Positions 2,863 through 31,596 are shown, counted from the stretch's first letter. The stretch is 32,000 nt of DNA from Candidatus Helarchaeota ASGARD archaeon Hel_GB_B (GCA_005191425.1 SUPR01000008.1:25590-57589); one strand, 5' to 3'. Translations and numbers: made by a program. The notes: generated from the letters alone by a model not told the origin.

Positions 2863-3372
2863 ATGACCATATCTAAAATAAAAGAGTTCAATGCATTAAC
2901 TTATGAACAAATTAAATTGAATGTTTTAGCTAATCTATTTAGAATGCTTGTAGATATTTATGGTTATCCAAAAGCCAAGAAAAATCTATCAAAAATTGAG
3001 AGTGAAGAGATTTATGTACATTTTCCATATTTAAAAGGCGGGATAATTTTCAGGCCACATGGTGAAAGAGTAATTGGACAAGTAGTAAAGGAACTTAAGG
3101 ACTCAGAAAAACCAAAGGCAAGGCTTAATTTCAAGGTTAAAGATGAAAAAATTTATGATGTAATTGAGAAAATAATAAAATATAAATCGAATAATTGGAG
3201 CATTCTAAAAGTATTTTTTAAATATATACTTACTGGAAAAGTAGGACTTTCTATTCTTAAAGTAGGGACTATTATTGTTCTTTTTAAGTGTCTGATGATT
3301 GGAGACCATCCAATGTATAAAGAAGTTGACATTAGTGATTTTAGTAAACAAGAACAATTAGGTGGTGTTTAA
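2863..3372 (+). CDS. Hypothetical protein, possibly a divergent SCP2-like lipid-binding domain
   Basis: 169 aa, first gene of a tight operon. The segment KPKARLNFKVK...YILTGKVGL echoes the SCP2 'P-x-x-x-hydrophobic ... GK-hydrophobic' pattern; weak. Confidence 0.45.
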   Translation: MTISKIKEFNALTYEQIKLNVLANLFRMLVDIYGYPKAKKNLSKIESEEIYVHFPYLKGGIIFRPHGERVIGQVVKELKDSEKPKARLNFKVKDEKIYDVIEKIIKYKSNNWSILKVFFKYILTGKVGLSILKVGTIIVLFKCLMIGDHPMYKEVDISDFSKQEQLGGV

Positions 3373-3375
3373 ATT

Positions 3376-3732
3376 ATGGAAATACCTGATGAGCCAGATG
3401 ATATTTTAGGTTTAGGGATTTATCGTAGAATAAAAACAGTAACAGAGATCAGTCCTGATTTTAAAAAGTTTGTCAATAATTTAAATGAAAATATCTTATT
3501 ATCTACTGATTATTATGATTTTATGATTAAATTTAAAGATGAAAATTTTGAAGTAACAAGAGAAATTGAGAATCCTACTATTATAATCAAAATTAAAATT
3601 GAAGAATTCTTTAAAATTATGGAAAAAAGGACTTCTATGGTATTTTCATTTTTAAAAGGAAAAATGAAATTTAAAAAGGGTTTAACTAAACTTTTTAAAG
3701 TGTATAAATTGTTTGGAAATATTTTAAGCTGA
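3376..3732 (+). CDS. SCP2 sterol/lipid-binding domain protein
   Basis: 118 aa. NPTIIIKIKIEEFFKIMEKRTSMVFSFLKGKMKFKKGL fits the C-terminal SCP2 pattern. Starts 3 bp after the previous stop, with GGTG upstream. Confidence 0.7.
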   Translation: MEIPDEPDDILGLGIYRRIKTVTEISPDFKKFVNNLNENILLSTDYYDFMIKFKDENFEVTREIENPTIIIKIKIEEFFKIMEKRTSMVFSFLKGKMKFKKGLTKLFKVYKLFGNILS

Positions 3733-3736
3733 AATT

Positions 3737-5224
3737 ATGAAAAAATTAGTAGGGTGTGATAAATTGTTAGAAAGTAGTGAAAAACATGACATTATCAAGG
3801 AGAGCCTAATAAAAATTGTCGGAGAGCAATGGTATTCAGATTTTCCTGAAGAATTATTGATATATTCCTATGATATGACCGAAAATGACCCCAGTTTACC
3901 TGAATTTGTAGTAATGCCCAGGACTTCTGAAGAAATTCAGAAAATATTAAAATTTGCAAATGAAACTAAAACACCTGTCGTTCCATTTATTAGTGGAAAT
4001 AATGTGGGCGGACTTACAATACCTTTAAAGGGGGGAATTGTTGTAGATTTGAAACGAATGGACTCTATTTTACATTTTAATGAAGATGATATGTATGTCA
4101 TAATAGAACCTGGTGTTACATTTGGTCATTTGCATGCTTTTTTGGAAAAAACTAATTATAGGTATTGTTATCCATTTGCACCGCCATTTACTTCTGTTAT
4201 AGCAAATGCACTTCTTGATGGACTGAATAATTTGAGTTTAAGACACGGAAGTATGAATGAATGGATAAATGGGATTGAAGCAATACTTCCAAATGGTGAT
4301 TTAGTTAAAATAGGAACTTGCTGTGCTTGGGGTGATAATTATGATTTATGGTGGAGTAGGAACCCCATGCCCGATCTTCTTGGTCTTTTTACCAGTTGGC
4401 AAGGTATGACTGGTATTGTCACGAAGATGGCAGTTCAAGTATGGCCTCGAAGACCAATTAGGGATTGGAGGATTGTTTTATCTTTTAATGTTGAAGAGAC
4501 TTACAAATTTGTAAAGACTCTTACTCATTTAGAAATATTAAATGATATTCTTTTTATGTCAATTGAAACTGTAAAAATGATTGCTGGAGTACCATACGGT
4601 AAAGCCAAATATTTAGAAGGGGAGCCTCGTTGGGTTTGTCTATTAGATTTTTCTGCAAATACTAAATTAGAATATGAAGCTAAATTAGATATGATTAATA
4701 CTGCTTTTAAAAAATTAAAAGAGGTCGACCCAAAAGCTAATATGACTAATCTTGATGTAATGGAAAAGTTTTACGGAAAAAAAGTCGGTGATATAAAAAA
4801 TTTACCTGTCACGATTGGCCCAATGCTCGAATATGGCGGTCTAACATGGATGGGTACATATATGACAACAAAAACCGAAGCAGTCGTTAATGGAATAAAG
4901 ACTGCCTTTGATTTAATTGATAAATATAGATTTGAAAAATGCTTGTATTCTAGGTCTATGAAAGGGCATCATTATTTTGCATTTAGGTTTCTTTTACGTT
5001 TTTCTAAATTACAAGAAGGAGAAACTGAACGTATGCAAAAATTACAAGAAGAGTTGTTTAATAGTTTGTTTGAACTTGGTGCATTTCCATATAAGACTCC
5101 TGCTCGGTTTGCAAAACAGATTTTAAAGCGAGCAGACCCAAATTGGGTTAATTTGCTAAAAACTATAAAAAGTACAATTGATCCAAATGGTATAATGAAT
5201 CCAGGAAGATGGGGCTTAGAATGA
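3737..5224 (+). CDS. FAD-linked oxidase/dehydrogenase (GlcD / D-lactate dehydrogenase / VAO fold)
   Basis: 495 aa with PEFVVMP, SGNNVGG, VDLKRMD, EPGVTFG, GMTGIVTK and terminal DPNGIMNPGRW. Confidence 0.9.
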   Translation: MKKLVGCDKLLESSEKHDIIKESLIKIVGEQWYSDFPEELLIYSYDMTENDPSLPEFVVMPRTSEEIQKILKFANETKTPVVPFISGNNVGGLTIPLKGGIVVDLKRMDSILHFNEDDMYVIIEPGVTFGHLHAFLEKTNYRYCYPFAPPFTSVIANALLDGLNNLSLRHGSMNEWINGIEAILPNGDLVKIGTCCAWGDNYDLWWSRNPMPDLLGLFTSWQGMTGIVTKMAVQVWPRRPIRDWRIVLSFNVEETYKFVKTLTHLEILNDILFMSIETVKMIAGVPYGKAKYLEGEPRWVCLLDFSANTKLEYEAKLDMINTAFKKLKEVDPKANMTNLDVMEKFYGKKVGDIKNLPVTIGPMLEYGGLTWMGTYMTTKTEAVVNGIKTAFDLIDKYRFEKCLYSRSMKGHHYFAFRFLLRFSKLQEGETERMQKLQEELFNSLFELGAFPYKTPARFAKQILKRADPNWVNLLKTIKSTIDPNGIMNPGRWGLE

Positions 5225-6390
5225 GTGAAACTGAAGCAATTAATAAATATGTTGAAGAAATATATTGTTGTACAAGATGTGGGACATGTAAATATATATA
5301 TCAAGTTTATGATCCATCATGTCCCGCAGGCGTAAAATTCCGGTTTGAAACTTTTTATCCAAGTGGTAAAATTCATATTGCTAGAGGACTAATTGAAGGT
5401 AAAATTGAATGGAGTGAGCGAATTCGTGATATAATTTTTGCTTGTCCAACTTGTGCAAACTGTACAATTCAATGTCAATCAAGGCATCATGCACAGATTG
5501 TCGAAATAATTGAAGCATTAAGAGCTGATGCTGTTAGTAAAGGATTTGGACCCCTGCCTAATCAAAAGGCATTTGCCGATTCGGTTAAAAAGGAACATAA
5601 CCCTTACAAAGAAAAGCATAGCGATAGAATAAAATGGGCTAAAAATCTTGCCATCCCACAAAAAGACAAGGCTGAAATTTTGTATTTCGTTGGTTGTACT
5701 TCCTCATATAGACAGCAATCCTTGGCTCAAAAAACAGTTGAAATATTAAATAAACTTGGAGTAGATTATATTGTTTCCAGTGATGAATGGTGTTGTGGTT
5801 CTCCTTTAATAAGGACTGGCCAATTAGAACAAGTATCTCAATTAATTAATCATAATTTAGATTTAATCAAAAGTCTAGGGGTAAAAACTGTCATTACTTC
5901 ATGCGCTGGTTGCTATAGGACTTTAAAAATGGACTATCCTAAATATACCGATAAATTAGATGGAATTGAATTCCTCCACATTACAGAATTTCTACAGCAA
6001 TTCATTTCTAAAAAGAAATTAAAATTTAAAAAAGGAAAAGAATTTAAAGTCACTTACCACGACCCTTGTCATTTAGGTCGCCATTCTAATATCTATGAAG
6101 AGCCAAGGGCAGTATTAAACGCAATTCCTGGACTGAAGCTCATTGAAATGCCTCGAAATAGAGAAAATGCTTGGTGTTGTGGAGCTGGCGGCGGTGTAAA
6201 GGCAGGATATAAAGAATGGGCGGTCGAAATCGCATCTGACAGAATCCATGAAGCAGAACAGATTAATGCTGAAATATTGACCAGTGCATGCCCTTTTTGC
6301 AAAACTAATCTCCAAGATGCTATTAATGAAACAAATTCTAACATAAAATTCATGGACATTGTAGAACTTTTAAACGAAGTGATTATATAA
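5221..6390 (+). CDS. (Fe-S)-binding CCG-domain oxidoreductase subunit (GlcF/GlpC/HdrD-like)
   Basis: Two ferredoxin-type motifs (CTRCGTC...CP and CPTCANCTIQC) and CCG motifs (FVGC, WCCGSP, SCAGC, HDPCHLGR, CCGAGGG, SACPFC). Likely start is ATG 5221, an ATGA overlap with the upstream stop; the ORF track starts at 5209. Confidence 0.92.
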   Translation: MSETEAINKYVEEIYCCTRCGTCKYIYQVYDPSCPAGVKFRFETFYPSGKIHIARGLIEGKIEWSERIRDIIFACPTCANCTIQCQSRHHAQIVEIIEALRADAVSKGFGPLPNQKAFADSVKKEHNPYKEKHSDRIKWAKNLAIPQKDKAEILYFVGCTSSYRQQSLAQKTVEILNKLGVDYIVSSDEWCCGSPLIRTGQLEQVSQLINHNLDLIKSLGVKTVITSCAGCYRTLKMDYPKYTDKLDGIEFLHITEFLQQFISKKKLKFKKGKEFKVTYHDPCHLGRHSNIYEEPRAVLNAIPGLKLIEMPRNRENAWCCGAGGGVKAGYKEWAVEIASDRIHEAEQINAEILTSACPFCKTNLQDAINETNSNIKFMDIVELLNEVII

Positions 6391-6646
6391 ATAATTTGAC
6401 TCAATGCTTCTTTTAATTATTTAATTAATCCAATTATCTTTTAATTATTCCTTTTATTATTAAAAAAATCTCATAAGAAATAATAACTATTTAGTAACAA
6501 TACTAAAAAAGTTAATAAACTTTATTTGATGCTTTATTTAATCCTTCTTGTTATAAATGCTTTTATCGAAACCATTTTATTCTTAATTGATATATGATTT
6601 TTACTACATGATTAAATTTTATAAATAACTTAAACAGTGGACTGTC

Positions 6647-7783
6647 ATGGACTTAGATAATTTGGATTTTATTAAGCTCTCTCAAACTATTTATAATGAT
6701 TATATTGATAATTGGAAAAAAAATAATAAAAAAGTTTATGGATATTATTGTTCTTATATCCCTGAAGAAGTATTATATGCAATGGAAATACTACCATTTC
6801 GTATTAGAGGGACTGGTTGTAATGATACTGCCTTAGCTGACTCAATTTTGTCTCATTTCAATTGTAGTTTTGTCCGATGTACTTTAAATTTAGTAATGGA
6901 AGGTAAGTATGATTTTTTAGATGGAATGGTATTTAGCAATTCATGTGATCATGTCAGAAGGCAGTATGATATTTGGAACCATAAAATTATGAAAGGAAAG
7001 GATTTTCCTTTAATTTTTCTGTCAATTCCACATAAAATTACTGAAGCAGGGCTGGCTTGGCTAAAAGAGGAATATTCTTTATTAATAAAAAAGCTTGAAG
7101 ATGACCAAAAAAAAGCGTTTGATGAAGATAATTTAATAGATATTATTAATATTTTTAATAAAAATAAGCAATTACTAAAAAGTGTTCTCAAGTTCAAAAC
7201 AGCAAAAGAACCAAAATTAAAAGGCAGCGAATTTTGTAAAATTATGATCGCAAATTCATCTATTCCAAAAGAAGATAGTAATAATGAATTGGAAAAAGTT
7301 ATAGAAACATTAAAGGAGAGAGAAAATCTTAAAGATTACAAAGCTAGATTTATGCTTGTTGGTAGCTATGTAGATAACCCCGATTTTTACAAAATTTTTG
7401 AAGATGTAGGTGGTTTAATAGTTACTGATTCATTATGTTATGGTCTTAGATATTTCTGGAATGAAATTAAAGTGTCTAAAGAGCCACTTTTAGAAGTAAT
7501 AAATTCATATTATAATAAGATTTCATGTCCTAGAATGATGGATCAACATCAGCAAAGACTGGATTTTATTAAAGGTCAAATTAAAGAGTCAAATATCGAC
7601 GGAGTAATATTAGAGCGTATGGAGTTTTGTGACTTACACGGCGTCGATAATATGCTCTTACAGCATGAATTAGAAGATATCGGCATCCCCGTTTTGAGTC
7701 TAGATAGAGAATATTTGTTAAGTGATATTGCTAGATTTAAAACTAGAGCAGAAGCATTTATTGAGCAAATTTTAGTGAGTTAA
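6647..7783 (+). CDS. 2-hydroxyacyl-CoA dehydratase / benzoyl-CoA reductase family small subunit (HgdB/BcrC/BzdN-like)
   Basis: 378 aa with GYYCSYIPEE, NCSFVR, SNSCDHVRR, DSLCYG, CPRM, FCDLHG and RFKTRAEAFIE. Confidence 0.9.
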   Translation: MDLDNLDFIKLSQTIYNDYIDNWKKNNKKVYGYYCSYIPEEVLYAMEILPFRIRGTGCNDTALADSILSHFNCSFVRCTLNLVMEGKYDFLDGMVFSNSCDHVRRQYDIWNHKIMKGKDFPLIFLSIPHKITEAGLAWLKEEYSLLIKKLEDDQKKAFDEDNLIDIINIFNKNKQLLKSVLKFKTAKEPKLKGSEFCKIMIANSSIPKEDSNNELEKVIETLKERENLKDYKARFMLVGSYVDNPDFYKIFEDVGGLIVTDSLCYGLRYFWNEIKVSKEPLLEVINSYYNKISCPRMMDQHQQRLDFIKGQIKESNIDGVILERMEFCDLHGVDNMLLQHELEDIGIPVLSLDREYLLSDIARFKTRAEAFIEQILVS

Positions 7784-7784
7784 A

Positions 7785-9053
7785 ATATCTAGTAGAATTA
7801 AAGCTGTTGAAATTATTTACCGTGCAAGTGACTTAACTCTTGACCTTGTAAATAGAGTAATGACAGAAAATGAAATGGTAATTTTGAAAAGTTTCCTGAA
7901 AAATTTAATTTCTCATTTTGAAGATATCTTACAAAAAGCTGAAGAAGGTGTGCCAATAATCGGACATCATTTTGGGTTTCCTGGCGAAGTCTTACAATGT
8001 TTTGATAATATAGCAACTGTTTCTTTTGAAGCATTACCATATTTATATTCCGCATTGTTTCCACAAGGTAGCGAATATTTCTATGATGTAATGAATGGTT
8101 GGGGACATCCATATCATGTCTGTACCGCAATAAAAGGCCTTTTGGGTATGTTTAAAGAAAATTTATTAAATTTTGATGTCGTGCTATGTCCTTCAGGGCC
8201 ATGTGATAATGGTATTGGGAGTTATCCTGCTTATGCACAAATTGGAAAAATACCTTTAATAGTTGCTGATATGCCCTATTTACATAATGAACGCGGATAT
8301 TATTATTATGCTCGGGAATTAAAATCGGCATTAGAAAAAATTTAAAAAATTATAGGTCAAGAACCCGATTATTCTAGATTTAAAAAAGCAATTGAATATA
8401 GCAACAAAGCTCATGAATATTTTACTGAAATTAACCAATTAAGGAGGCTAGCTCCATGTCCTCTTGAGAGTATGGCAAATCCAATAATAACAGCAGCACA
8501 TGCTTTTTTGTCAGGTAAGCCACAATATACTAACTTTTTTAAAGATGTTTATGAAATTGCAAAAAAACGAGTAAAAAATAACCAAGGACGCTTTGGAGAA
8601 GAGAAGTTTCGGTCTATATGGCCATATATGTCTATCTTTTTCGATTTTAGCTTCTATGATTGGATGGACCGAGATTTAGGAATGAGCCAAATAATTGATA
8701 TTTTCAATCATTTCTTTTTCGATCAAGTATCTACTAAAAATATCGATGAAATGTTCTTAGGGCTTGCTAAAAAGTGGCATGAATATCCTATGATCAGACA
8801 AAGTCAGAGTTTTATAGATCAGATGATTGATGATTATGTGTGGGCAATAAAAGAATTTAAAATAGACTGTGCAATATTGACTGAACATATCGGTTGTAAA
8901 GCTCTTGCTGCTACAACACAAATCTTAAAAGAAGTTTTAAGAGACGAAGGTGTACCAATGTGTAATATCGAAATTGATGTTGGTGATAAGCGGTTCACAT
9001 CTATAGATTCAGTAAAACATGAAATTACTGAATTTGTAAAAACCATGCTCTAA
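7785..9053 (+). pseudogene. Dehydratase/reductase large subunit (HgdA/BcrB-like) interrupted by an in-frame TAA at 8343-8345
   Basis: ORFs 7860-8345 and 8472-9053 are in the same frame. Reading through gives LEKI*KIIGQEPDYSRFKKAIEYSNKAHEY..., which aligns without gaps to VNSVSKIIGQEPNFDNMIKAIEFNSKAHQY in the 248-1537 paralog. Homology also extends upstream of ATG 7860. A true pseudogene and a consensus error cannot be distinguished here. Confidence 0.8.
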
Positions 9054-10442: not shown

Positions 10443-10943
10443 ATGAATATCGAAGAAAAAATAGCCCGCGAACTTGAAAAAGGAGAGACATTAATAGATT
10501 TAGGTTATTTAGATGAAGCACTCGAGCGACTTGATATTGTATTAGAATTAGATAATGATAATGAAGAAGCTTGGATGTTTAAATGCGCAGCTTTTGAACG
10601 TAAAGGTGATTTCGAAAATGCATTAAGGTGTATTGATAAAGTAATTGAAATTTCTCCAAGAAATAAAATGGCGTGGGATTATAAAGGTTATTTATTATAT
10701 AATTTAAAAGAATTTGAGAATGCTATTAATTGTTTTAAAAAAGCTATTGAAATTAATGATAAATATACTAATGCTTATTATAATTTGGCATGCTGTTATT
10801 CATTATTAGAGAAAAAATCTGATACTTTAAATACATTAAAAACATTGGTCCAATTAAAACCTAAAATTAAGACTGAAATTAAAAATGAAAAAGATTTTAA
10901 GTGGCTTTACGATGAACCCGACTTTATAAATCTTGTGGAATGA
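10443..10943 (+). CDS. Tetratricopeptide repeat protein
   Basis: 166 aa with TPR-spaced AW..K..A / AW.YKG / AYYNLACCY repeats. GGTGA ribosome-binding site upstream. Confidence 0.9.
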   Translation: MNIEEKIARELEKGETLIDLGYLDEALERLDIVLELDNDNEEAWMFKCAAFERKGDFENALRCIDKVIEISPRNKMAWDYKGYLLYNLKEFENAINCFKKAIEINDKYTNAYYNLACCYSLLEKKSDTLNTLKTLVQLKPKIKTEIKNEKDFKWLYDEPDFINLVE

Positions 10944-11295
10944 TTGATAATTATTTTTCTATTTTTATACATTTTTATGAATGGATATCTTTAAATTCTA
11001 ATAAATAATAAAAAATTATTTCAAATTTACATATTCTTTTTTGAATCTCTTTATGGTGAATATTAAATTCTTAAATTAATTAACTATTTGAAATAAAGTC
11101 CAACAAAAAAATAAAAATATATCTTGATTATTAGAAAAATTTTAATTAATTTTTTAAGAATTAATAAGTTAATAAAGCAAAAAAGAATATTTAAAATAAA
11201 TTATTTAAAAAAATCGGAATATTATATTATCATTTCTAATTATTGCATATCTGTACCAATAATTTATGATTTATCTTAAAAAAAAGGCGAGCTAT

Positions 11296-12072
11296 TTGAC
11301 TTTTAATGCAGGTTTAGATATAGGTTCATGTTATTGCAAATGCGTAGTAATTAATGAAAATAAAGAAATCATAGCAACATCAATTTCACCATTAGGTGGA
11401 AACCCCAGAAATGCTTCTAAACTTACTTTTGAAAATGCGTTAAAATCAGCAAATCTTAAAAGTAAAAATATTAAAAATATAGTTTGTGTGGGCAGAAATC
11501 GGAAAAAAGTTTCATTTAAAAGTCATGAGGAGTCAGAGATCAAGTGTATTGCAAAAGGAGCTCGAGAATTAATTCCGTCTTTAAGAACAATTGTAGACCT
11601 TGGTGCGCTAACCAATAAGGCAATTAAACTTAATTCAAATGGAAAAGTGGTCGATTATGTAATTAATGATAAATGCGCATCTGGAAGTGGGATGTTCCTA
11701 GAATTAGTAGCTAAAGCTTTAGAAATGGACATTAGTGATATCGATAAAAAGGCAAAAATGTCTGAAAATCCTCTCCCAATTACAAATCAATGTAGTATTT
11801 TTGCTGAAAGCGAAGTAATATATTTAGTTAATGAAAGTAAAAATGAAATCGACATAATTGCAGGCGTTACAAATTCAATTGCAAACCGAATATATTCACT
11901 CTTAAAAAGGGTAAATATGGAAAAAGATATTATTTTAACGGGTGGAGTCGCAAATACTAATTATATTAAGTTAAAATTAGAAGAAAGGCTTAATATGGAA
12001 ATAAAAGAACCTACTATTTCTCCAATTTATATCGCTGCATTTGGTGCATCCTTATATGCAAGTGAAATTTAA
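11296..12072 (+). CDS. ATP-dependent [4Fe-4S] activator (HgdC/BcrD-like, ASKHA fold), non-canonical copy
   Basis: GLDIGS, DLGAL, NDKCASGSGMFLE, NQCSIFAESE and LTGGVA. Likely start is TTG 11296 with GGCGAG upstream; the track starts at ATG 11266. Confidence 0.9.
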   Translation: MTFNAGLDIGSCYCKCVVINENKEIIATSISPLGGNPRNASKLTFENALKSANLKSKNIKNIVCVGRNRKKVSFKSHEESEIKCIAKGARELIPSLRTIVDLGALTNKAIKLNSNGKVVDYVINDKCASGSGMFLELVAKALEMDISDIDKKAKMSENPLPITNQCSIFAESEVIYLVNESKNEIDIIAGVTNSIANRIYSLLKRVNMEKDIILTGGVANTNYIKLKLEERLNMEIKEPTISPIYIAAFGASLYASEI

Positions 12073-12087
12073 ACCGGTGAATTTAAA

Positions 12088-12885
12088 ATGGCTAATTATT
12101 TAGGGATTGATATTGGGTCATTAACTGGAAAAGCAGTTATTATTGATGATAATAATAATATAAAAGCACAAAAAGTAATTTATGTAAAAAAAACACCTTT
12201 GAAAACTGTTAATGTACTATTAGACTCTATTTTGCCTGAAATTGGTATTGATGACCTCTCAAAAATAACTTATTGCGTTGGAACTGGTTATGGTCGTAGG
12301 AAAATACCTCTTGCTAATGAAACAATTAGTGAGATTACCTGTCATGGAACAGGTGCCCATCATGTTATGCCCTCTTTAAGAACTGTTATTGACATTGGTG
12401 GTCAGGACTGTAAGGTTATTAGGCTAGATGAAAATGGGAATTTAAAGAATTTTATTATGAATGAGAAATGCGCGGCAGGTACTGGGCGATACCTAGAATT
12501 AATGAGTGAAACTCTAAATATCCCTCTTGAAAAACTTGGTCCAATTTCATTAAAAACAAAATCGCCTGTATCTCTTCAAAGTAAATGTTCATTATACGCT
12601 CAATTTGAAGTTATTTCGCTATTAGGGGAAGGTATTAAAAAACCAGATATCGCAGCTGGAATAAATAAAGCAATGGCTGAAAGGGTCATAAATCTCGCTG
12701 AAAAAGTCGGTATTGAAGAGGACATAACTGTAAGCGGTGGAGTTGCTAAAAATATCGGTGTAGTTATCAATATGGAAAAATTACTGGGTATAAAATTTAA
12801 AAAACTACCTGTAGATCCCCAAATAATTGGTGCACTTGGGGCAGCTTTAATTTCAAGAAAATCCTTTTTAAAGAAAAACAGCTGA
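12088..12885 (+). CDS. ATP-dependent [4Fe-4S] activator (HgdC/BcrA-like), canonical copy
   Basis: GIDIGS, GTGYGR, EITCHG, DIGGQD, MNEKCAAGTGRYLE, SKCSLYA, SGGVAKN and GALGAA. GGTGA ribosome-binding site upstream. Confidence 0.93.
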   Translation: MANYLGIDIGSLTGKAVIIDDNNNIKAQKVIYVKKTPLKTVNVLLDSILPEIGIDDLSKITYCVGTGYGRRKIPLANETISEITCHGTGAHHVMPSLRTVIDIGGQDCKVIRLDENGNLKNFIMNEKCAAGTGRYLELMSETLNIPLEKLGPISLKTKSPVSLQSKCSLYAQFEVISLLGEGIKKPDIAAGINKAMAERVINLAEKVGIEEDITVSGGVAKNIGVVINMEKLLGIKFKKLPVDPQIIGALGAALISRKSFLKKNS

Positions 12886-15950: not shown

Positions 15951-17123
15951 ATGAACTCACGTGAACGCGTATTAACTACATTTGAACACCAAGAACCCGA
16001 TAAAATTCCAATCGATTTTGGAGGTAATCAATCGGGAATACATATTATTGCTTATAAAAATTTACTTAAATATTTGGATATAGATGATAAAAATATTAAA
16101 TATTGTGATTTTATCCAACAATTGGCATATCCTTGTGAAGAATTATTAAAACGATTTGAAGTTGATATCCGTTGGCTTAGACCGCCAAAATCACTTTTAC
16201 CTGAAAATTTTATGCCAATAATTGAAGGGAAATATATTGGGATTTATGACCAATTCGGTGTATTTTGGGGCGATAGTAAGGAAAAAGATGTCAAGGAAAT
16301 ATTATATTATTCACCCCAAATCCATCCTCTGGAAGATTTAAATACTATAAATCAAATTAAAAATTTTGACTGGCCTGATGGGACTGATAAAAAGCCATTT
16401 AAAGGACTCCGAGAACAAGCTAAAAAGCTCCGTAAAAATACTCAATATGCTATAGCTGTTCCTCCATTAGGTTGTAATTTTGAGTATACTACATTTCTAT
16501 TTGGTTTTAAAAAGGCCCTTAGCCATCTCAGAAGAAAACCCGAACTAATTGTCGCTGCAATGGAAGAATTAAAAAAATATTGGACTGATTATGCTACTAC
16601 TTTTTTGAATGAAATTAAATTTAATAACGAATTTTATGTTGATATAGTTGCTGTTAATAGCGACCTTGCTATGCAAACAGGGCCACTTATGGACCCAGAA
16701 AAAATATATGTCCCAATAATTAAACCAATTGAGAGAGACTTTTCTCAAAAACTGCATAGCCTTGCAAATATCAAGATCAATTTTCATTGTTGCGGTTCTA
16801 TAGCTCCATTTATACCACATTTTGCCGATATACAATATGATGCAGTAAATCCCGTTCAAATTGGAGCTTATGATATGGAACCTTGTAGTTTAAAGAAGAG
16901 GTTCGGAGAAATAATAACTTTTTGGGGCGGTCTCTGCGACTCTCAACATACACTACCATATGGACCTTTGAAAAAAATAGAAAATGAAGTCAAATATAAC
17001 TTAGAATGTTTCAAAAAAGGCGGTGGATATATAGCTTCGAGTGTGCATAATATAACTTCAGAAGTACCACCTGAAAACATAACTACAATGTTTGATACAC
17101 TAATAAAATATAGAAAATATTAA
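15951..17123 (+). CDS. UroD/MtaA-family (cobalamin-dependent methyltransferase-like) TIM-barrel protein
   Basis: MNSRERVL....HQEPDKIPID, FHCCG, AVNPVQ, GGGYI and VHNI....PPEN. Starts 14 bp downstream of the GH94-like gene. Confidence 0.88.
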   Translation: MNSRERVLTTFEHQEPDKIPIDFGGNQSGIHIIAYKNLLKYLDIDDKNIKYCDFIQQLAYPCEELLKRFEVDIRWLRPPKSLLPENFMPIIEGKYIGIYDQFGVFWGDSKEKDVKEILYYSPQIHPLEDLNTINQIKNFDWPDGTDKKPFKGLREQAKKLRKNTQYAIAVPPLGCNFEYTTFLFGFKKALSHLRRKPELIVAAMEELKKYWTDYATTFLNEIKFNNEFYVDIVAVNSDLAMQTGPLMDPEKIYVPIIKPIERDFSQKLHSLANIKINFHCCGSIAPFIPHFADIQYDAVNPVQIGAYDMEPCSLKKRFGEIITFWGGLCDSQHTLPYGPLKKIENEVKYNLECFKKGGGYIASSVHNITSEVPPENITTMFDTLIKYRKY

Positions 17124-17153
17124 TTTTCTTAAAAATAAAAGGATTTTATCAGT

Positions 17154-18323
17154 TTATTCATCAATTTTAATTGGATAATTTCCATATTTTTCTCTAATTC
17201 TCATTACAGCTTCCCATCTATCAATAGTGACCGCAGGGTTGATACTATGTCCACTACTAAAAATGTATCCTCCTCCTGGAGCCAAAACTTTAATTAACTT
17301 CTTAGAATATTCCTCAATTTCTGAAATCTTTCCCTGGCTCAACATTACTGGACTAATATTCCCAACAAATGTTAATTTATCACCATATTTTTCATGTAAT
17401 TTGAAAATATTATAATCTGGATTTGCAGTAGTCGGTTCAATCGGATTAAGAGCATCAACCCCTGAACTTACAATATCTTCAAAAATTTGCATTAGATCTC
17501 CATCAGAATGCAGTAATATCTTAGAATCGTTTTTATGCGCAGCTTCACAGATTCTTTTTATCCATGGAAATACATATTGTCTATAATTCTTAGGACTCAT
17601 GAACAGTCCATTTTTAAAGCCATAGTCATCCCATAAAATAATCAGTCTTGCTCCATTTTCTGCCAATATCTTGACCATTTCTAAAGTAAACTCTCCTCTA
17701 TCATCAAATACTTTTTTAATTTGTTTTCTATGGGCTAATAAACGTGAAAAATTCTCTAAGCCAAATCCTTCCCACGTGCATTCCATCAATGCCCCCACTG
17801 CAGGAACATTAAAAACTTCATGTTTCATTTCATTTTCAAGATCTTGTCCCGCAAGAAAATTTATAATTCGTATTTCGTCATTAGGGTCAAGTTGTTCCCA
17901 ACTTTCATAATCATCAAAGTCCTTAAAGAAACCCCCATAATATCCTAAAATTATTGTCCCATCTCCACTGTATTTCTCAAGTTTCATAATTCTCCCATAT
18001 TCATCTATGAATCCGTTCTTTATTATTTTTCGGGGAAATAAGGATGCTACTGATATACCAATATCTAATTTTACCCTCCTGCTAAATTCAAATATCTCTT
18101 TTAATCCTTTTGCTACTAATTTTCTATTTTTTAAAGCACTCCTCATTATACTATGACGAAAAGGTATAAATCTTAGTATTTTTAAACCTGCAAACAGTCC
18201 AGCACTGGGTTTTATCCCATAATGCCGCATAATTGTATTATTTGTAAATGCACTTTCAAATGCTGGAACTCGGTCAGGTTCCTCATGATTAATAGCCATT
18301 AAAACCCTTGTAGGTGCGTCCAT
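17154..18323 (-). CDS. UroD/MtaA-family methyltransferase-like protein, second copy
   Basis: RVLMAINHEEPDRVP, WDDYG...GLFMSP, LHSDG, LNPIEP, GNI and GGGYIFSSGHSI. Starts 2 bp after the corrinoid gene. Confidence 0.88.
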   Translation of the reverse strand: MDAPTRVLMAINHEEPDRVPAFESAFTNNTIMRHYGIKPSAGLFAGLKILRFIPFRHSIMRSALKNRKLVAKGLKEIFEFSRRVKLDIGISVASLFPRKIIKNGFIDEYGRIMKLEKYSGDGTIILGYYGGFFKDFDDYESWEQLDPNDEIRIINFLAGQDLENEMKHEVFNVPAVGALMECTWEGFGLENFSRLLAHRKQIKKVFDDRGEFTLEMVKILAENGARLIILWDDYGFKNGLFMSPKNYRQYVFPWIKRICEAAHKNDSKILLHSDGDLMQIFEDIVSSGVDALNPIEPTTANPDYNIFKLHEKYGDKLTFVGNISPVMLSQGKISEIEEYSKKLIKVLAPGGGYIFSSGHSINPAVTIDRWEAVMRIREKYGNYPIKIDE

Positions 18324-18325
18324 TA

Positions 18326-18967
18326 TTAACCCTCCATTAAAATGTTTATATGTCTAACTCCGTCTATTGCATCATTTGCATAATCATCGGTTCCCATCTT
18401 TTTTGCAATTTCCATATTTAATGGTGCCCCACCTACAATTATTTTCACTTTATCTCGCAATCCCGCACTTTTTAATGCGTCTACAATGTTTTTAATTTCT
18501 TCGATAGTCATAGTAAGCAAACAGCTTAAAGCAATAACCTTTGCTTTTGTTTTTTTAATTGCTTTTATAATCTTATTAGCAGGGCAATTTGTCCCTAAAT
18601 CAATAATTTCGTATCCGGCAGAAATCAACATCGTAATTAATATATTTTTACCAATATCATGATTATCTCCTTTAACTGTTGCACAAATGATTTTTCCTTT
18701 ATTTCCTTGCTCATCTGCTTTTAAATATGGATTTAATACCGTCATTGCGTCCTTCATTGTCTCTCCCGCTAAAATAAGGTCTGTTAAAAAATATTCTTTT
18801 CTTTCATACAACCTTCCTACTTCGTCCATACCCTCTGTTAATACTTGTAATATTTGTTTGGGATCTGTACCTGCATCTAATTCAGCTTGAACAGTTTCTT
18901 TTATTTCATCTACATTTAAGTCGATAATTAATTCTTTTATTTTATTTAATGTCAAATTAAAGACCAT
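18326..18967 (-). CDS. Corrinoid (B12-binding) methyl-carrier protein, MtaC/MtbC-like
   Basis: N-terminal cap domain (GMDEVGRLYERKEYFLTDL), DxHxxG motif (GDNHDIGKN), ALSCLLT and IIVGGAP. Confidence 0.95.
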   Translation of the reverse strand: MVFNLTLNKIKELIIDLNVDEIKETVQAELDAGTDPKQILQVLTEGMDEVGRLYERKEYFLTDLILAGETMKDAMTVLNPYLKADEQGNKGKIICATVKGDNHDIGKNILITMLISAGYEIIDLGTNCPANKIIKAIKKTKAKVIALSCLLTMTIEEIKNIVDALKSAGLRDKVKIIVGGAPLNMEIAKKMGTDDYANDAIDGVRHINILMEG

Positions 18968-28091: not shown

Positions 28092-29540
28092 ATGAAAAAT
28101 GACAATTTAAAAAAAGTAGATAGTGATGAAATTTATGACTGTATTATTATTGGCGGTGGTGCAGCAGGTTCTGCGTGTGCTGCCTTACTGTCGAAATGGG
28201 GCTTTAAAGTTATCTTGATTGAAAAAAGAGGGCACTTAGGCGGCAGAGCATCAACATTAAAAACTAATCTTGGATATAAGATTGATACCGGTGTTCATGG
28301 TATCCCATATTATGATATTGGGAGTTTAAAAAAGATCGAAAAAGAACTAGAAATCCAATTCGATTTAATAGATTACAGCCCTCTTCTAGCCTTTTATGAT
28401 GTAGAAGAAAAAATTTGTGTTGAAGTTAATGAATTTAATAATTCGTTTTTTAAAGAAATTAATAGAATTTGGTCTCCTAATAATGAATTTTTACACCTCT
28501 TAAATTTTTTACATAATGCAACTGAAGATGATGCGGAAAAATTAGATAATACAACTGTTAAGGACTTTATTCAACAATTTTCTCCAACTCATCAATTCTA
28601 TCAATTAATTAGAGCAATAAATGGCATGATAACTATTGAGCCTCACTTAGGTTCAGCTGGTGAATTTATTAGAAGTTTCTCAAAATTATTTTCCTCAAAA
28701 AGACCAATTACTTATCCAAAAAATGGGGGCATCCAATCCTTATCTGAGATTTTTGGTGAAATTTGTAGAGAAAATGGTGGTGAAATTTTACTTTTAAATA
28801 AAGTTACTGAGATTTTAATTGATAACAATAAAGTTATCGGCGTAAAATGTGAAAATAAAGTAAAAGATGATAGTCAAGAAATATTTGATATTTATTCACA
28901 TTCAGTTATAGTTACTATTCCACTTCAAAATTTATTTTCTATAATTTCAAAAGGTTTTTTTTCGGAAAATTTTGTAAATAAAGTAGATTCTCTAAAAGAC
29001 ATGCAATCTTGTGCCCAAGGTATTGCATTTACTTTTAAGAAAGAATTATTAAATGATTTCCCATGGGACCCTAAGTGTTGGGGCGCTATTATTTTTCAAC
29101 CTGGAAAGAAGCCAAGATATCTATCTGTACCGTCCGCTTTAGTTGATAATATTACACCTCCAGGAATGCATTACATGTTTTATGGGATAGTAGCAACACC
29201 CGAAGAATTGAAAGATAAAAAAGGGAGTCGGGCAAGATTAAAGGAATTGAAAAGAGAAATATATCAAATGTTTCCTAGATTAAAGGAATTGAAGCAATGG
29301 CAATTCGAAGGCTCAAGTGAGATGGTACTAGGGACTGCAAAACGAGTTGGTATGACTGGAAACTATAAACCAGGAAACAAGAATAATGAAATTGATGGAC
29401 TTTTTTTTGCAGGTGATACAGTTGGCGGAAATGGTCCTGGACTAGAATGCACTTTTGATAGTGCGTTAAAATGTTCTAAATTAGTGCTGAATTGGATTAA
29501 TAATAATTATAAGAAACTTAATGATAAATTAAAAAACTAA
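28092..29540 (+). CDS. FAD-dependent oxidoreductase, phytoene desaturase (COG1233)-like family
   Basis: Rossmann motif IIIGGGAAG, EKRGHLGGRA, YPKNGGIQSL and C-terminal GLFFAGD. Confidence 0.85.
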   Translation: MKNDNLKKVDSDEIYDCIIIGGGAAGSACAALLSKWGFKVILIEKRGHLGGRASTLKTNLGYKIDTGVHGIPYYDIGSLKKIEKELEIQFDLIDYSPLLAFYDVEEKICVEVNEFNNSFFKEINRIWSPNNEFLHLLNFLHNATEDDAEKLDNTTVKDFIQQFSPTHQFYQLIRAINGMITIEPHLGSAGEFIRSFSKLFSSKRPITYPKNGGIQSLSEIFGEICRENGGEILLLNKVTEILIDNNKVIGVKCENKVKDDSQEIFDIYSHSVIVTIPLQNLFSIISKGFFSENFVNKVDSLKDMQSCAQGIAFTFKKELLNDFPWDPKCWGAIIFQPGKKPRYLSVPSALVDNITPPGMHYMFYGIVATPEELKDKKGSRARLKELKREIYQMFPRLKELKQWQFEGSSEMVLGTAKRVGMTGNYKPGNKNNEIDGLFFAGDTVGGNGPGLECTFDSALKCSKLVLNWINNNYKKLNDKLKN

Positions 29541-29583
29541 TTATTACACTTAAATGGTATTAATCAAAAAAGAGGAATAAAGT

Positions 29584-30738
29584 TTGTCATTAGATCAAAT
29601 TAAAATTCCAACAATTTATTATGGTAGAGGGTCATTAAAACAATTAAAATATTTTAAACAAAAGAGAATTTTAATAGTAACAGATAATATCATTAATAAG
29701 TTGTATGGCGATAAAATTCAACGAATATTAAAGAATAAAGAATGTCTATTTTTTACTGAAGTCCTCCCGGATCCTCTAGATAAAATTATAATGAAGGGAG
29801 GTAATGTTGCCAAACAATTTTCTCCCGATTTAATTGTTGGAATTGGTGGTGGGTCGGTAATGGACTCTGCTAAAGGTATTTTCTTCTTATATGAGCGTCC
29901 TGATAAGTCCCTTTACGATATAAATCCTATCAATTATTTTAAATTGGGTAGAAAATCAAAATTAATTTTAATTCCTACCACAAGTGGCACTGGTGCTGAA
30001 CACACTGGGGCTATAATCGTCACAAAATCTGAAGGTAACCAGAAAACTGGGTTAATTTGTTTTGAACTCGTTCCATCTGCCGTTATTCTTGACCCCAAAT
30101 TACCTTTAAACATGCCCCCTAAATTAACTGCTTCTACTGGTATTGATGCTTTAGTTCATGCTATTGAAAGTTTTATAAACAAAATGAATAGCGATTTTAC
30201 AGCCCCATTTAATCTAAATTCTATCAAAACTCTTTTTAAATACCTCCCTATTGCGGTAAAAAATGGCAATAACGATATATTTGTTAGAGAAAAAGTCCAT
30301 TACGCTGCTTCAATGGCTGGCATCGCATTAGCAAACTCAGCAGCGGGTCTCGCTCATTCTTGTGGTCATTCATTAGGTAGTGTTTTTCATACGCAGCACG
30401 GAATCGCAGTAGGTTTAATGCTCCCATATATCATCGAATTCAATAAATCTCACTGTAATAACAAATATAAAACAATCCTAGAAACATTAAATGTAAATTA
30501 CGATGATCCCGCATCGAAATTGTCCAATACAATAAAAAGTCTGTTAAAGGAAATTGGTCTACCATTAACTATAAAAGAATTGGATATTTCAAAAAATGAT
30601 TTTGAATCAAATTTTGAAAAATTAACTGAATATGCTTATAATGATTTAGCAACAGGTTTAAATCCGCGATCTACAACAGAAAACGACATTAAAAAAATTT
30701 TTCATCATGCTTATAATGGACAAACAATTGATTTTTAA
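29584..30738 (+). CDS. Iron-containing (family III) alcohol dehydrogenase
   Basis: GGGSVMDSAK, PTTSGTGAE, GIDALVHAIE, HSCGHSLG and HGIAVG. TTG start with GAGG upstream. Confidence 0.95.
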   Translation: MSLDQIKIPTIYYGRGSLKQLKYFKQKRILIVTDNIINKLYGDKIQRILKNKECLFFTEVLPDPLDKIIMKGGNVAKQFSPDLIVGIGGGSVMDSAKGIFFLYERPDKSLYDINPINYFKLGRKSKLILIPTTSGTGAEHTGAIIVTKSEGNQKTGLICFELVPSAVILDPKLPLNMPPKLTASTGIDALVHAIESFINKMNSDFTAPFNLNSIKTLFKYLPIAVKNGNNDIFVREKVHYAASMAGIALANSAAGLAHSCGHSLGSVFHTQHGIAVGLMLPYIIEFNKSHCNNKYKTILETLNVNYDDPASKLSNTIKSLLKEIGLPLTIKELDISKNDFESNFEKLTEYAYNDLATGLNPRSTTENDIKKIFHHAYNGQTIDF

Positions 30739-30762
30739 TAAAGAAGTTTTCTTCTTAATATT

Positions 30763-31596
30763 TTAAATTAACGGATGGGCATAACAATATATACAAGCAT
30801 GTTTGCATATTTGATCACGATAATTTCCTATGTCTCTACTTTTAGTACAATTACAATTTTCTCTTGTTGGTGATTTTGCAATGCTACATTTTTCTTTAAA
30901 TAATCTTGATAATTTATTGCCATCAATACAACTTGACGGATAAACGTTATCAATTTGGGTCAAAAATGGTTTACAGCAACTATACATTTTAATATTATGA
31001 CTCTTACAATATTTAGCTAGCGGTTTTACTGTTTCTATTTTTTCTTTAATACTTGGGTCATAAAATTTAAGTCCATATTTTTTAGCCCTTGCTACACTTT
31101 TTTTATACCAATCTACAAAATTAAATACGCAATTATCAATGCCCAAATCACTGACTTTATCTATTATATAATAAAAGCTATCCAGATTATTAACCAACTC
31201 ATTATCCTCATACCAGAAAACAATAGGATCAAACCTATATTCAATGTATTCCGGCCCAAATTCATCAACAAGGTTTTCTAATTGAATTAATCGTTTATCT
31301 AAATTGATTACATTTGGTTCCCAAATAGACTCTGAATTGATTGTAAATATAAAAAACAAATTATAATCCGAAAATTCGGCAGTTTTTTGTAAAAATTTCC
31401 CGAAATCTTTAGACCAAAAAACAATTGAATGAACATCCGACTTTTTTAGCGATACACGGGTAATTTGACTTGGATAAAATGGGTTCTTTACCATAACATA
31501 TCCTTGGTTCAGTTTATCTATCATCCAATCCAGATAAAAAGCAGGTATGTCGGTTCTACGCGAAGCTGAAATAACTGTTCGCATTCTTTTTACCAT
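30763..31596 (-). CDS. DUF1848 family protein
   Basis: ISASRRTDIPAFY, IVFWSK, YRFDPI and C-terminal C.C..SRDIG.Y...CKHACIYCYA. Confidence 0.88.
   Translation of the reverse strand: MVKRMRTVISASRRTDIPAFYLDWMIDKLNQGYVMVKNPFYPSQITRVSLKKSDVHSIVFWSKDFGKFLQKTAEFSDYNLFFIFTINSESIWEPNVINLDKRLIQLENLVDEFGPEYIEYRFDPIVFWYEDNELVNNLDSFYYIIDKVSDLGIDNCVFNFVDWYKKSVARAKKYGLKFYDPSIKEKIETVKPLAKYCKSHNIKMYSCCKPFLTQIDNVYPSSCIDGNKLSRLFKEKCSIAKSPTRENCNCTKSRDIGNYRDQICKHACIYCYAHPLI

Follow-up and report, generated by a model that had tools for sequence, protein, structure and literature searches.

A 32,000-nucleotide stretch of DNA (the window) from the Asgard archaeon Candidatus Helarchaeota Hel_GB_B (GCA_005191425.1, SUPR01000008.1:25590-57589) carries genes for two small SCP2-like proteins, which we call S1 and S2, next to genes for two redox enzymes. 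One of these enzymes consists of a flavoprotein that binds flavin adenine dinucleotide (FAD) and an iron-sulfur (Fe-S) protein with CCG domains; the other belongs to the HGD-D family and resembles the BzdNO subunits of class I benzoyl-CoA reductase (BCR). By comparing the locus with its relatives in other Asgard genomes, we found that S2 is the conserved partner of the FAD-CCG pair and that S1 is the conserved partner of the BzdNO-like enzyme. The initial annotation of this region had regarded both SCP2-like proteins as dedicated carriers for the FAD-CCG pair, a pairing that the gene neighborhoods support for S2 but not for S1. Since the partnerships of S1 and S2 differ across loci, the genes are better read as one carrier per enzyme than as two carriers for one oxidase, with the two enzymes repeatedly joined in one operon, in four or more arrangements. 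New here are the link between S1 and the BzdNO-like enzyme and the repeated association of the modules; full-text literature searches found no published description of a system that combines SCP2 proteins, a FAD-CCG pair and a BzdNO-like enzyme.

All genes of the locus lie on the plus strand of the window, which is AT-rich (25-34% G+C). Open reading frame (ORF) calls place S1 (169 aa) at 2863-3372 and S2 (118 aa) at 3376-3732, separated by 3 bp, and the flavoprotein gene (495 aa; 3737-5224) follows after another 4 bp. Its stop codon TGA (5222-5224) overlaps an ATG at 5221 to form ATGA, while the longest ORF for the Fe-S protein (393 aa; 5209-6390) starts 12 nt earlier, at 5209, and overlaps the flavoprotein gene by 16 nt. 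The coupling of four genes at 2863-6390 described in the initial annotation is thus confirmed, with either the ATGA or the 16-nt overlap depending on the start codon used. A 256-bp AT-rich spacer separates the CCG gene from the genes for the two HGD-D subunits, HGDb (6647-7783; PF06050, E 5e-85) and HGDa (7860-9053; a BzdO/HadB-like subunit, readable as a single frame with one stop). Two different activase-type ATPases of the BcrAD_BadFG family (PF01869) are encoded further downstream, ATPase 1 at 11266-12072 (E 3e-44) and ATPase 2 at 12088-12885 (E 7e-58). A DEAD-box helicase gene and a TPR gene lie between HGDa and the ATPase genes; in a genome of the same genus, the operon is contiguous. 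A 12-bp stretch of the CCG-HGDb spacer, at window position 6520, is missing from one related strain (run X2).

Each SCP2 gene keeps its own enzyme partner

We surveyed a sample of 400 Asgard genomes, fetched 16-kb contexts around relatives of the window proteins and located homologues of all window genes in them. Relatives of S2 were present in 114 of the 400 genomes and relatives of S1 in 92, all of which belong to class Lokiarchaeia; S1 was found in none of the 241 Asgard genomes outside that class. In 19 of 20 loci, the gene immediately downstream of S2 encodes a flavoprotein homologue (40-80% identity), with the CCG gene next in 15, and these S2-FAD loci come from several Asgard classes, S1-less lineages included. 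S1 lies directly upstream of HGDb, or of HGDb-HGDa, in all 24 loci outside the window's own order, and directly upstream of HGDb-HGDa in all 17 wider loci. The linkage on which the initial annotation had staked its reading is therefore conserved, for S2 with the flavoprotein and for S1 with HGDb.

The two modules are joined in several ways. Within the window's own order, three loci (L021-L023) share the gene order S1-S2-FAD-CCG-HGDb-HGDa, followed by ATPase genes where the contig extends (both in L021, the first in L022 and none in L023, where the contig ends), and a fourth (L024) has the order S2-FAD-CCG-S1-HGDb-HGDa-act1-act2. The order is S1-HGDb-HGDa-S2-FAD in L035 and S1-HGDb-HGDa-FAD-CCG in L078 and five loci of family f6, and divergent module pairs occur in L164-L166. 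Because the arrangement recurs in four own-order genomes and, as sub-modules, in dozens of Asgard genomes, the gene order of the window is not a product of chance. These shared operons also uphold the earlier proposal that the downstream HGD-D genes take part in the same route, although the type of enzyme proposed for them has to be revised, as described below.

Additional genes accompany the modules in some lineages. In six further S1-HGD loci, CCG-only proteins take the place of FAD-CCG; S1-HGDb-HGDa is followed in L152, L154, L155, L157, L160 and L163 by a GH2 glycosidase gene (not in all), a DUF6125 gene and one or two genes for CCG-only proteins of about 340 aa. In Lokiarchaeia of family f6, genes for a 260-aa CdhC-like (PF03598) protein and a CooC/ParA-type P-loop ATPase follow or flank FAD-CCG, and this pair was seen at L153:13676-15277 and in L156, L158, L159, L164-L167, L031 and L034. 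We considered the pair as a possible part of the window system and rejected it, its homologues being on other contigs of this genome. Seven Thor-type loci (L025-L029, L032 and L037) have, beside S2-FAD-CCG, a gene for a protein of about 1100 aa in which only an N-terminal GNAT domain is recognizable; it is directly upstream and co-oriented in four of the seven, and its ESM Atlas matches are labeled 'hypothetical protein'. Small ferredoxin genes and a gene for a 289-aa protein with two [4Fe-4S] motifs lie near the Thor-type loci as well. The TPR gene of the window (10443-10943) was likewise dropped as a component: BLASTP against the ORFs of the fetched loci, the TPR gene preceding S1 in two relatives among them, gave no match at E 1e-3 or better.

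Protein families of the two modules

Having defined the gene partnerships, we examined the proteins themselves. S1 and S2 are assigned to SCP2 on the basis of their homologue families and predicted folds, since single-sequence Pfam searches were insufficient. S2 alone matched the Pfam SCP2 model (PF02036) with an E-value of 0.02 and 15.7 bits, below the gathering cut-off of 21.3. The same model was matched by 16 of 21 aligned S2 relatives at a threshold of E 0.01 (best E 9e-20), and the S2 family profile matched SCP2 structures at 1e-6, including Archaeoglobus AF1534. In the AlphaFold2 model of S2, the predicted local distance difference test (pLDDT) score was 88, and all top Foldseek matches in the PDB were SCP2 proteins or domains, the SCP2 domain of UbiJ being the second. 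S1 alone had no Pfam match, and SCP2 was matched by only three of its 26 relatives, at E 0.035 or weaker, which places S1 outside SCP2 at the sequence level. Its AlphaFold2 model, built from a 26-sequence alignment, reached a pLDDT of 84.4 and has the topology H-H-E-E-E-E-H-H-E-H of SCP2; the top PDB matches were UbiJ-SCP2 (E 1e-6), followed by SCP2 domains of alkylsulfatases and SCP2. The two families are barely related to each other in sequence (hhalign probability of 31%). The models thus predict an SCP2 fold for both the 169-aa and the 118-aa protein, as the initial annotation had anticipated.

Beyond its own family, the S2 profile reached SCP2 domains, several of which are fused to MFE-2-type acyl-CoA enzymes. 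A word-index search returned no longer, fused forms of S2, and ten long matches of an exhaustive profile search that were scanned with Pfam proved to be multi-SCP2 or MFE-2-like proteins with no FAD or CCG fusions. Among public-metagenome proteins, we observed some with three or four tandem SCP2 domains and MFE-2-like ones in which an SDR, four SCP2 domains and a MaoC domain are fused (P0222, P0244, P0166 and P0169). SCP2 subunits and domains serve enzymes of hydrophobic substrates, as in UbiJ/UbiT, MFE-2, SCPx and alkylsulfatases, and the SCP2 domain of UbiJ has been proposed to bind polyprenyl intermediates of ubiquinone synthesis. S1 and S2 are comparable to UbiJ/UbiT in being small SCP2 proteins that may hold a hydrophobic substrate for soluble enzymes, but the similarity is one of fold only, the enzymes that they accompany are unrelated and there is no sign of a quinone pathway here. 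Peroxisomal MFE-2 and SCPx likewise tie an SCP2 module to enzymes of hydrophobic acyl-CoAs; in these proteins SCP2 is fused to an SDR, hydratase or thiolase, whereas S1 and S2 are separate and encoded beside a flavoprotein/Fe-S pair and a putative radical enzyme.

The flavoprotein contains the domains FAD_binding_4 (PF01565, E 2e-27) and FAD-oxidase_C (PF02913, E 2.6e-6). It scored below every NCBIfam cut-off, including that of GlcD (TIGR00387; 93.8 bits versus 567.9), and matched only generic 'FAD-binding oxidoreductase' clusters in the ESM Atlas. As a single sequence, it was closest to 4-phenol oxidoreductases, over the FAD domain only; its N-terminal domain is 30-32% identical to those encoded by genes of the p-cresol methylhydroxylase (PCMH) and eugenol oxidase (EUGO) type. 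With a 28-sequence family profile, positions 7-477 of 478 aligned with PchF of PCMH, cap domain included (E 1.6e-52), the best and sole full-length profile match. The match to D-lactate dehydrogenase (1e-36) covered the FAD domain only, and that to alkyl-dihydroxyacetone phosphate (alkyl-DHAP) synthase was confined to positions 41-128 or 42-256 of the same domain (E 8e-18 to 7e-16), which lends no direct support to the alkyl-DHAP-synthase-type reaction suggested in the initial annotation.

For phylogenetic analysis, reference sequences were taken from plasmids: Metabacillus glcD-glcF, a Novosphingobium PCMH-like gene with cytochrome c genes on both sides and an aldehyde dehydrogenase gene after them, and a Rhodococcus EUGO-like gene. 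One clade, with a Shimodaira-Hasegawa-like approximate likelihood ratio test (SH-aLRT) value of 95, unites the window protein with the HGD-linked Asgard flavoproteins and with a set of FAD-CCG flavoproteins from bacteria and archaea. This clade is apart from GlcD and from PCMH/EUGO, and the tree leaves open its branching order with these and a fourth clade. In the alignment, the motifs H-x6-H (H-x-GDGN-x-H) and GEHG are present in all GlcD-clade rows shown and in no window-clade rows; from the structures of LDHD and D2HGDH, we take them to form a His/His/Glu metal site. At the corresponding sites, the window clade has MKGHHY...FR and, with a deletion, P-Y-K, matching M-H-H and Y-R of PCMH/EUGO. 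Tyr452-Lys453 and His412 are invariant, the Tyr-Lys pair aligning with Tyr-Arg of PCMH/EUGO and the His with His436 of PCMH. In VAO and PCMH, the GYG motif contributes the first phenolate Tyr; this residue is lost by deletion here, which leaves incomplete the Tyr-Tyr-Arg phenolate-binding triad of 4-phenol oxidoreductases. Leu364 and Leu369 align with the residues that carry covalent FAD, Tyr384 of PCMH and His390 of EUGO. Because the GlcD motifs, the GYG Tyr and the covalent-flavin residues are missing, the flavoprotein, as judged from its sequence, belongs neither to the GlcD-type 2-hydroxyacid dehydrogenases nor to the canonical 4-phenol oxidoreductases. It shares the VAO/PCMH fold with PCMH (PchF/PchC), VAO and EUGO, as well as a Trp-containing insert, and PCMH also needs a separate electron-accepting subunit. 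In the window, that subunit would be an HdrD-like CCG protein, not cytochrome c, and an SCP2 subunit is added.

The Fe-S protein contains a Fer4_8 domain (PF13183) and two CCG domains (PF02754). Its best NCBIfam match was TfrB (275 bits versus a cut-off of 385); HdrB structures were matched as well, and no equivalog cut-off was passed. Across 40 homologues, eight N-terminal Cys residues, sufficient for two [4Fe-4S] clusters, are invariant and the second CCG motif is complete; the window protein has both full CX(n)CCX(n)CXXC motifs and two ferredoxin-type CxxCxxCxxxC motifs. These features identify it, by sequence, as an HdrD/GlcF-type protein. The pair of a FAD_binding_4 protein with a Fer4/two-CCG protein, often encoded by overlapping genes, is also typical of GlcD-GlcF, GlcDEF and FAD/CCG D-lactate dehydrogenases, from which the window system differs in its flavoprotein and in its SCP2 subunit, which GlcD systems lack. 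In a same-genus genome (L021:5283-6460), a frameshift or an assembly error divides the CCG gene into two ORFs (176 and 114 aa).

Members of the window's flavoprotein clade, again in FAD-CCG pairs, were also found outside Asgard archaea, in Desulfobacterales, Syntrophaceae, Dehalococcoidia, Bathyarchaeia, Methanomethylicota, Methanofastidiosum and Hadarchaeota. Their neighbors include AMP-forming ligases, aldehyde dehydrogenases, GntR/FCD regulators and URO-D methyltransferases, and S2 is confined to Asgard-type loci among the loci sampled. We also observed a separate clade of flavoprotein-CCG-flavoprotein triplets in which the GlcD motifs are absent too (L100, L116, L117, L119, L124 and L125), with hosts among Chloroflexota, Hadesarchaea, Jordarchaeia, Thorarchaeota and a Desulfobacterium.

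The closest structure to HGDb is BzdN (PDB 8s02; 1.9e-45), followed by HadC (2e-31) and a double-cubane protein (6e-26). Six Cys residues of HGDb are invariant in 25 homologues, and the HGDa family has three. In BzdN, the [8Fe-9S] cluster has six Cys ligands, and the [4Fe-4S] cluster of BzdO has three (PMC11971306). HGDb therefore probably carries a double-cubane cluster, as judged from its Cys pattern. HGDa matched only MbdO, and weakly (E 1e-4). The ATPases are distinct proteins, ATPase 2 being 32-39% identical to homologues of the other in cross-matches, and an ATPase 1 homologue directly follows HGDa in the relatives L021 and L024. By sequence, HGDb, HGDa and two different ATPases make up the subunit pattern of a class I BCR. 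A 2-hydroxyacyl-CoA dehydratase would instead come with one homodimeric activator and a CoA transferase, whereas two ATPases and no transferase were found among the scanned ORFs. The downstream enzyme, taken in the initial annotation for a member of the dehydratase family, thus appears to resemble BzdNO more than a dehydratase, given the stronger match to BzdN than to HadC (2e-45 versus 2e-31), the six Cys residues and the two ATPases. It differs from BzdNOPQ in the weak match of HGDa and in its SCP2 partner, which BCRs lack.

HGDa is interrupted by one in-frame TAA at 8343-8345, and its pieces are 64-72% identical to the intact gene of a same-genus genome. Long near-identical contigs are present in hydrothermal-vent and marine-sediment metagenomes; this codon is TCA (Ser) in contigs of two other metagenome runs and TAA in one run, possibly that of the source sample. 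No RNA data set was listed as containing the stretch. It looks like a strain-level nonsense variant. A second, intact gene for an HGDa-type subunit lies upstream of the operon (248-1537; PF06050, E 3e-43) and is 47-53% identical to the HGDa genes of relatives.

Candidate pathways and substrates

These findings can be combined in a scheme in which two SCP2-assisted redox modules serve one anaerobic pathway on one family of hydrophobic substrates, a proposal whose chances we consider about evenly balanced. In module 1, S2 would bind a poorly soluble substrate and, in a physical complex, present it to the soluble PCMH-related flavoprotein, where the invariant Tyr452-Lys453 and His412 would hold an anionic group of the substrate. 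The flavoprotein would remove two electrons, as hydride, from a C-H or C-OH of the substrate, and these would leave FAD by way of two [4Fe-4S] clusters, reach the CCG clusters in the HdrD-like subunit and continue to a further acceptor. Module 2 would consist of S1, the BzdN-like/BzdO-like heterodimer and the two different ATPases, and may carry out an ATP-driven, very low-potential one-electron step, of the ketyl or Birch type, on the same substrate family. Its substrate would most likely be a thioester, with S1 as its carrier. The locus is most reasonably read as serving a hydrophobic substrate and not lactate or glycolate, in agreement with the lipophilic substrate proposed in the initial annotation. 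In a more specific form of this scheme, the locus would encode an undescribed Lokiarchaeial anaerobic pathway for a compound that is membrane-like or otherwise strongly hydrophobic, for example an isoprenoid, an ether lipid or a phenolic lipid with a long chain, with SCP2 carriers shuttling it between a PCMH-like/HdrD-like dehydrogenase and an ATP-driven Birch/ketyl-type Fe-S enzyme; we regard this form as distinctly unlikely.

Several observations weigh against the two-module pathway. In other Asgard classes, S2-FAD-CCG is found with neither S1 nor HGD, so module 1 can work alone. S2 is undetectable by profile beside the non-Asgard FAD-CCG pairs of the window clade, and therefore a carrier is not essential to the chemistry. 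An SCP2 fold is no proof of lipid binding, and the window ORFs that were scanned with Pfam included neither a CoA ligase nor a CoA transferase. Finally, module 2 may be impaired in this strain, considering the stop codon in HGDa and the helicase and TPR genes that precede the ATPase genes.

Alternative schemes draw on the same protein families. The flavoprotein could carry out side-chain oxidation on a 4-alkylphenol or benzylic alcohol, perhaps one derived from lignin, with the CCG protein replacing cytochrome c; once an aryl-CoA has been formed, the BzdNOPQ-like enzyme would reduce its ring, and the SCP2 proteins would handle the poorly soluble, membrane-toxic aromatics. Such anaerobic breakdown of phenolic aromatics would account for the full-length PCMH match and the related N-terminal domain, the Tyr-Lys pair at the phenolate Tyr-Arg site, and BzdN as the nearest structure together with two ATPases. 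It would also fit the bacterial members of the clade, which have an aldehyde dehydrogenase or AMP-forming ligase gene directly upstream and URO-D methyltransferase genes nearby, and the URO-D and corrinoid genes inside the window itself (15951-18967). We nonetheless place it on the unlikely side, given that the first phenolate Tyr is deleted, the covalent-flavin residues are missing, the tree does not join the window clade to PCMH/EUGO, and the Asgard operons contain no ligase or aldehyde dehydrogenase gene. Moreover, in this genome, which is 94% complete, the lower benzoyl-CoA pathway enzymes, the ring hydrolase Oah (49 bits versus a cut-off of 464) and dienoyl-CoA hydratase (Dch; 60 versus 292), fell below cut-off. 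Canonical benzoyl-CoA degradation is unlikely for this reason, and we rejected it for this genome. If the FAD-CCG pair acted instead as a dehydrogenase of long-chain or aromatic D-2-hydroxyacids, the HGD-D enzyme could dehydrate an (R)-2-hydroxyacyl-CoA to an enoyl-CoA while the SCP2 proteins hold the acyl chain. In its favor, the 2-hydroxyacid dehydrogenases include FAD-CCG pairs such as GlcD-GlcF, a Bacillus GlcD is 26% identical to the flavoprotein over 96% of the latter, and HGD-D is the dehydratase family; in addition, GntR/FCD regulators stand beside some bacterial relatives, and four family-f6 loci have methylmalonyl-CoA mutase genes upstream of S1. The absence of H-x6-H and GEHG from the whole window clade, its separate position and its low score with the GlcD model (94 bits versus 568) argue against this GlcD-type reaction, put forward in the initial annotation and now left with no direct support. 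Together with an HGDb that is nearer to BzdN than to HadC and has six Cys residues, not three, and with two different ATPases in place of one homodimeric activator and no CoA transferase among the scanned ORFs, they make this route very unlikely.

The two SCP2 proteins could also be reconciled with remodeling or breakdown of ether or membrane lipids, in which the HGD enzyme would act like PlsAR or Ger in converting an ester to a vinyl or alkyl ether, the flavoprotein would oxidize or cleave an ether or isoprenoid alcohol, and the SCP2 proteins would draw the lipid out of the membrane. In favor of this, PlsA and Ger are phospholipid-acting members of the same HGD/activase superfamily, two SCP2 carriers would suit a membrane-lipid substrate, and Ger homologues have been reported in Lokiarchaeota (PMC13159169). 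Set against these points, PlsA and Ger are large fused proteins, unlike the separate subunits here, the alkyl-DHAP synthase match is confined to the FAD domain, and the HGDb matches listed from NCBIfam and the PDB are the double-cubane protein, BzdN and HadC, in a comparison that extended to these two databases and not to PlsA and Ger sequences. We therefore consider lipid remodeling highly improbable. Lastly, rather than carrying the substrate, S2 might stand in for a membrane anchor and offer the CCG subunit a lipophilic electron acceptor, quinone- or phenazine-like. Membrane carriers are the usual electron acceptors of HdrD and GlpC-type CCG proteins, the ORFs and Pfam matches of the operon include no membrane subunit, and the UbiJ SCP2 domain is the top Foldseek match of the S1 model as well as the second of the S2 model. 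This role would leave the tie of S1 to the HGD enzyme unexplained, no quinone or phenazine pathway came to light here, and the Thor-type loci have small ferredoxin genes nearby instead, so we give it hardly any probability.

Elsewhere in the window, positions 28092-31596 encode a phytoene-desaturase/amine-oxidase-type flavoprotein, an Fe-dependent alcohol dehydrogenase and a DUF1848 protein.

Implications for anaerobic metabolism in Asgard archaea

FAD/CCG dehydrogenases and radical enzymes of the BCR/HGD type are key catalysts of anaerobic carbon turnover, and to our knowledge, neither kind is known to use a lipid-carrier subunit. The modules described here are present in roughly a quarter of the 400 sampled Asgard genomes, where their routine annotation as 'glycolate oxidase' and '2-hydroxyglutaryl-CoA dehydratase' would lead reconstructions of metabolism astray in the closest archaeal relatives of eukaryotes. 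Our analysis yields a defined gene set for expression and a short list of substrate classes. If the more specific pathway for a strongly hydrophobic compound is correct, module 2 would be the first SCP2-assisted radical enzyme, and the pathway would give sediment archaea an oxygen-free route for the breakdown or remodeling of lipids. Given that SCP2 is among the few lipid-transfer folds common to archaea and eukaryotes, its use by enzymes of Asgard archaea would be relevant to the evolution of lipid handling.

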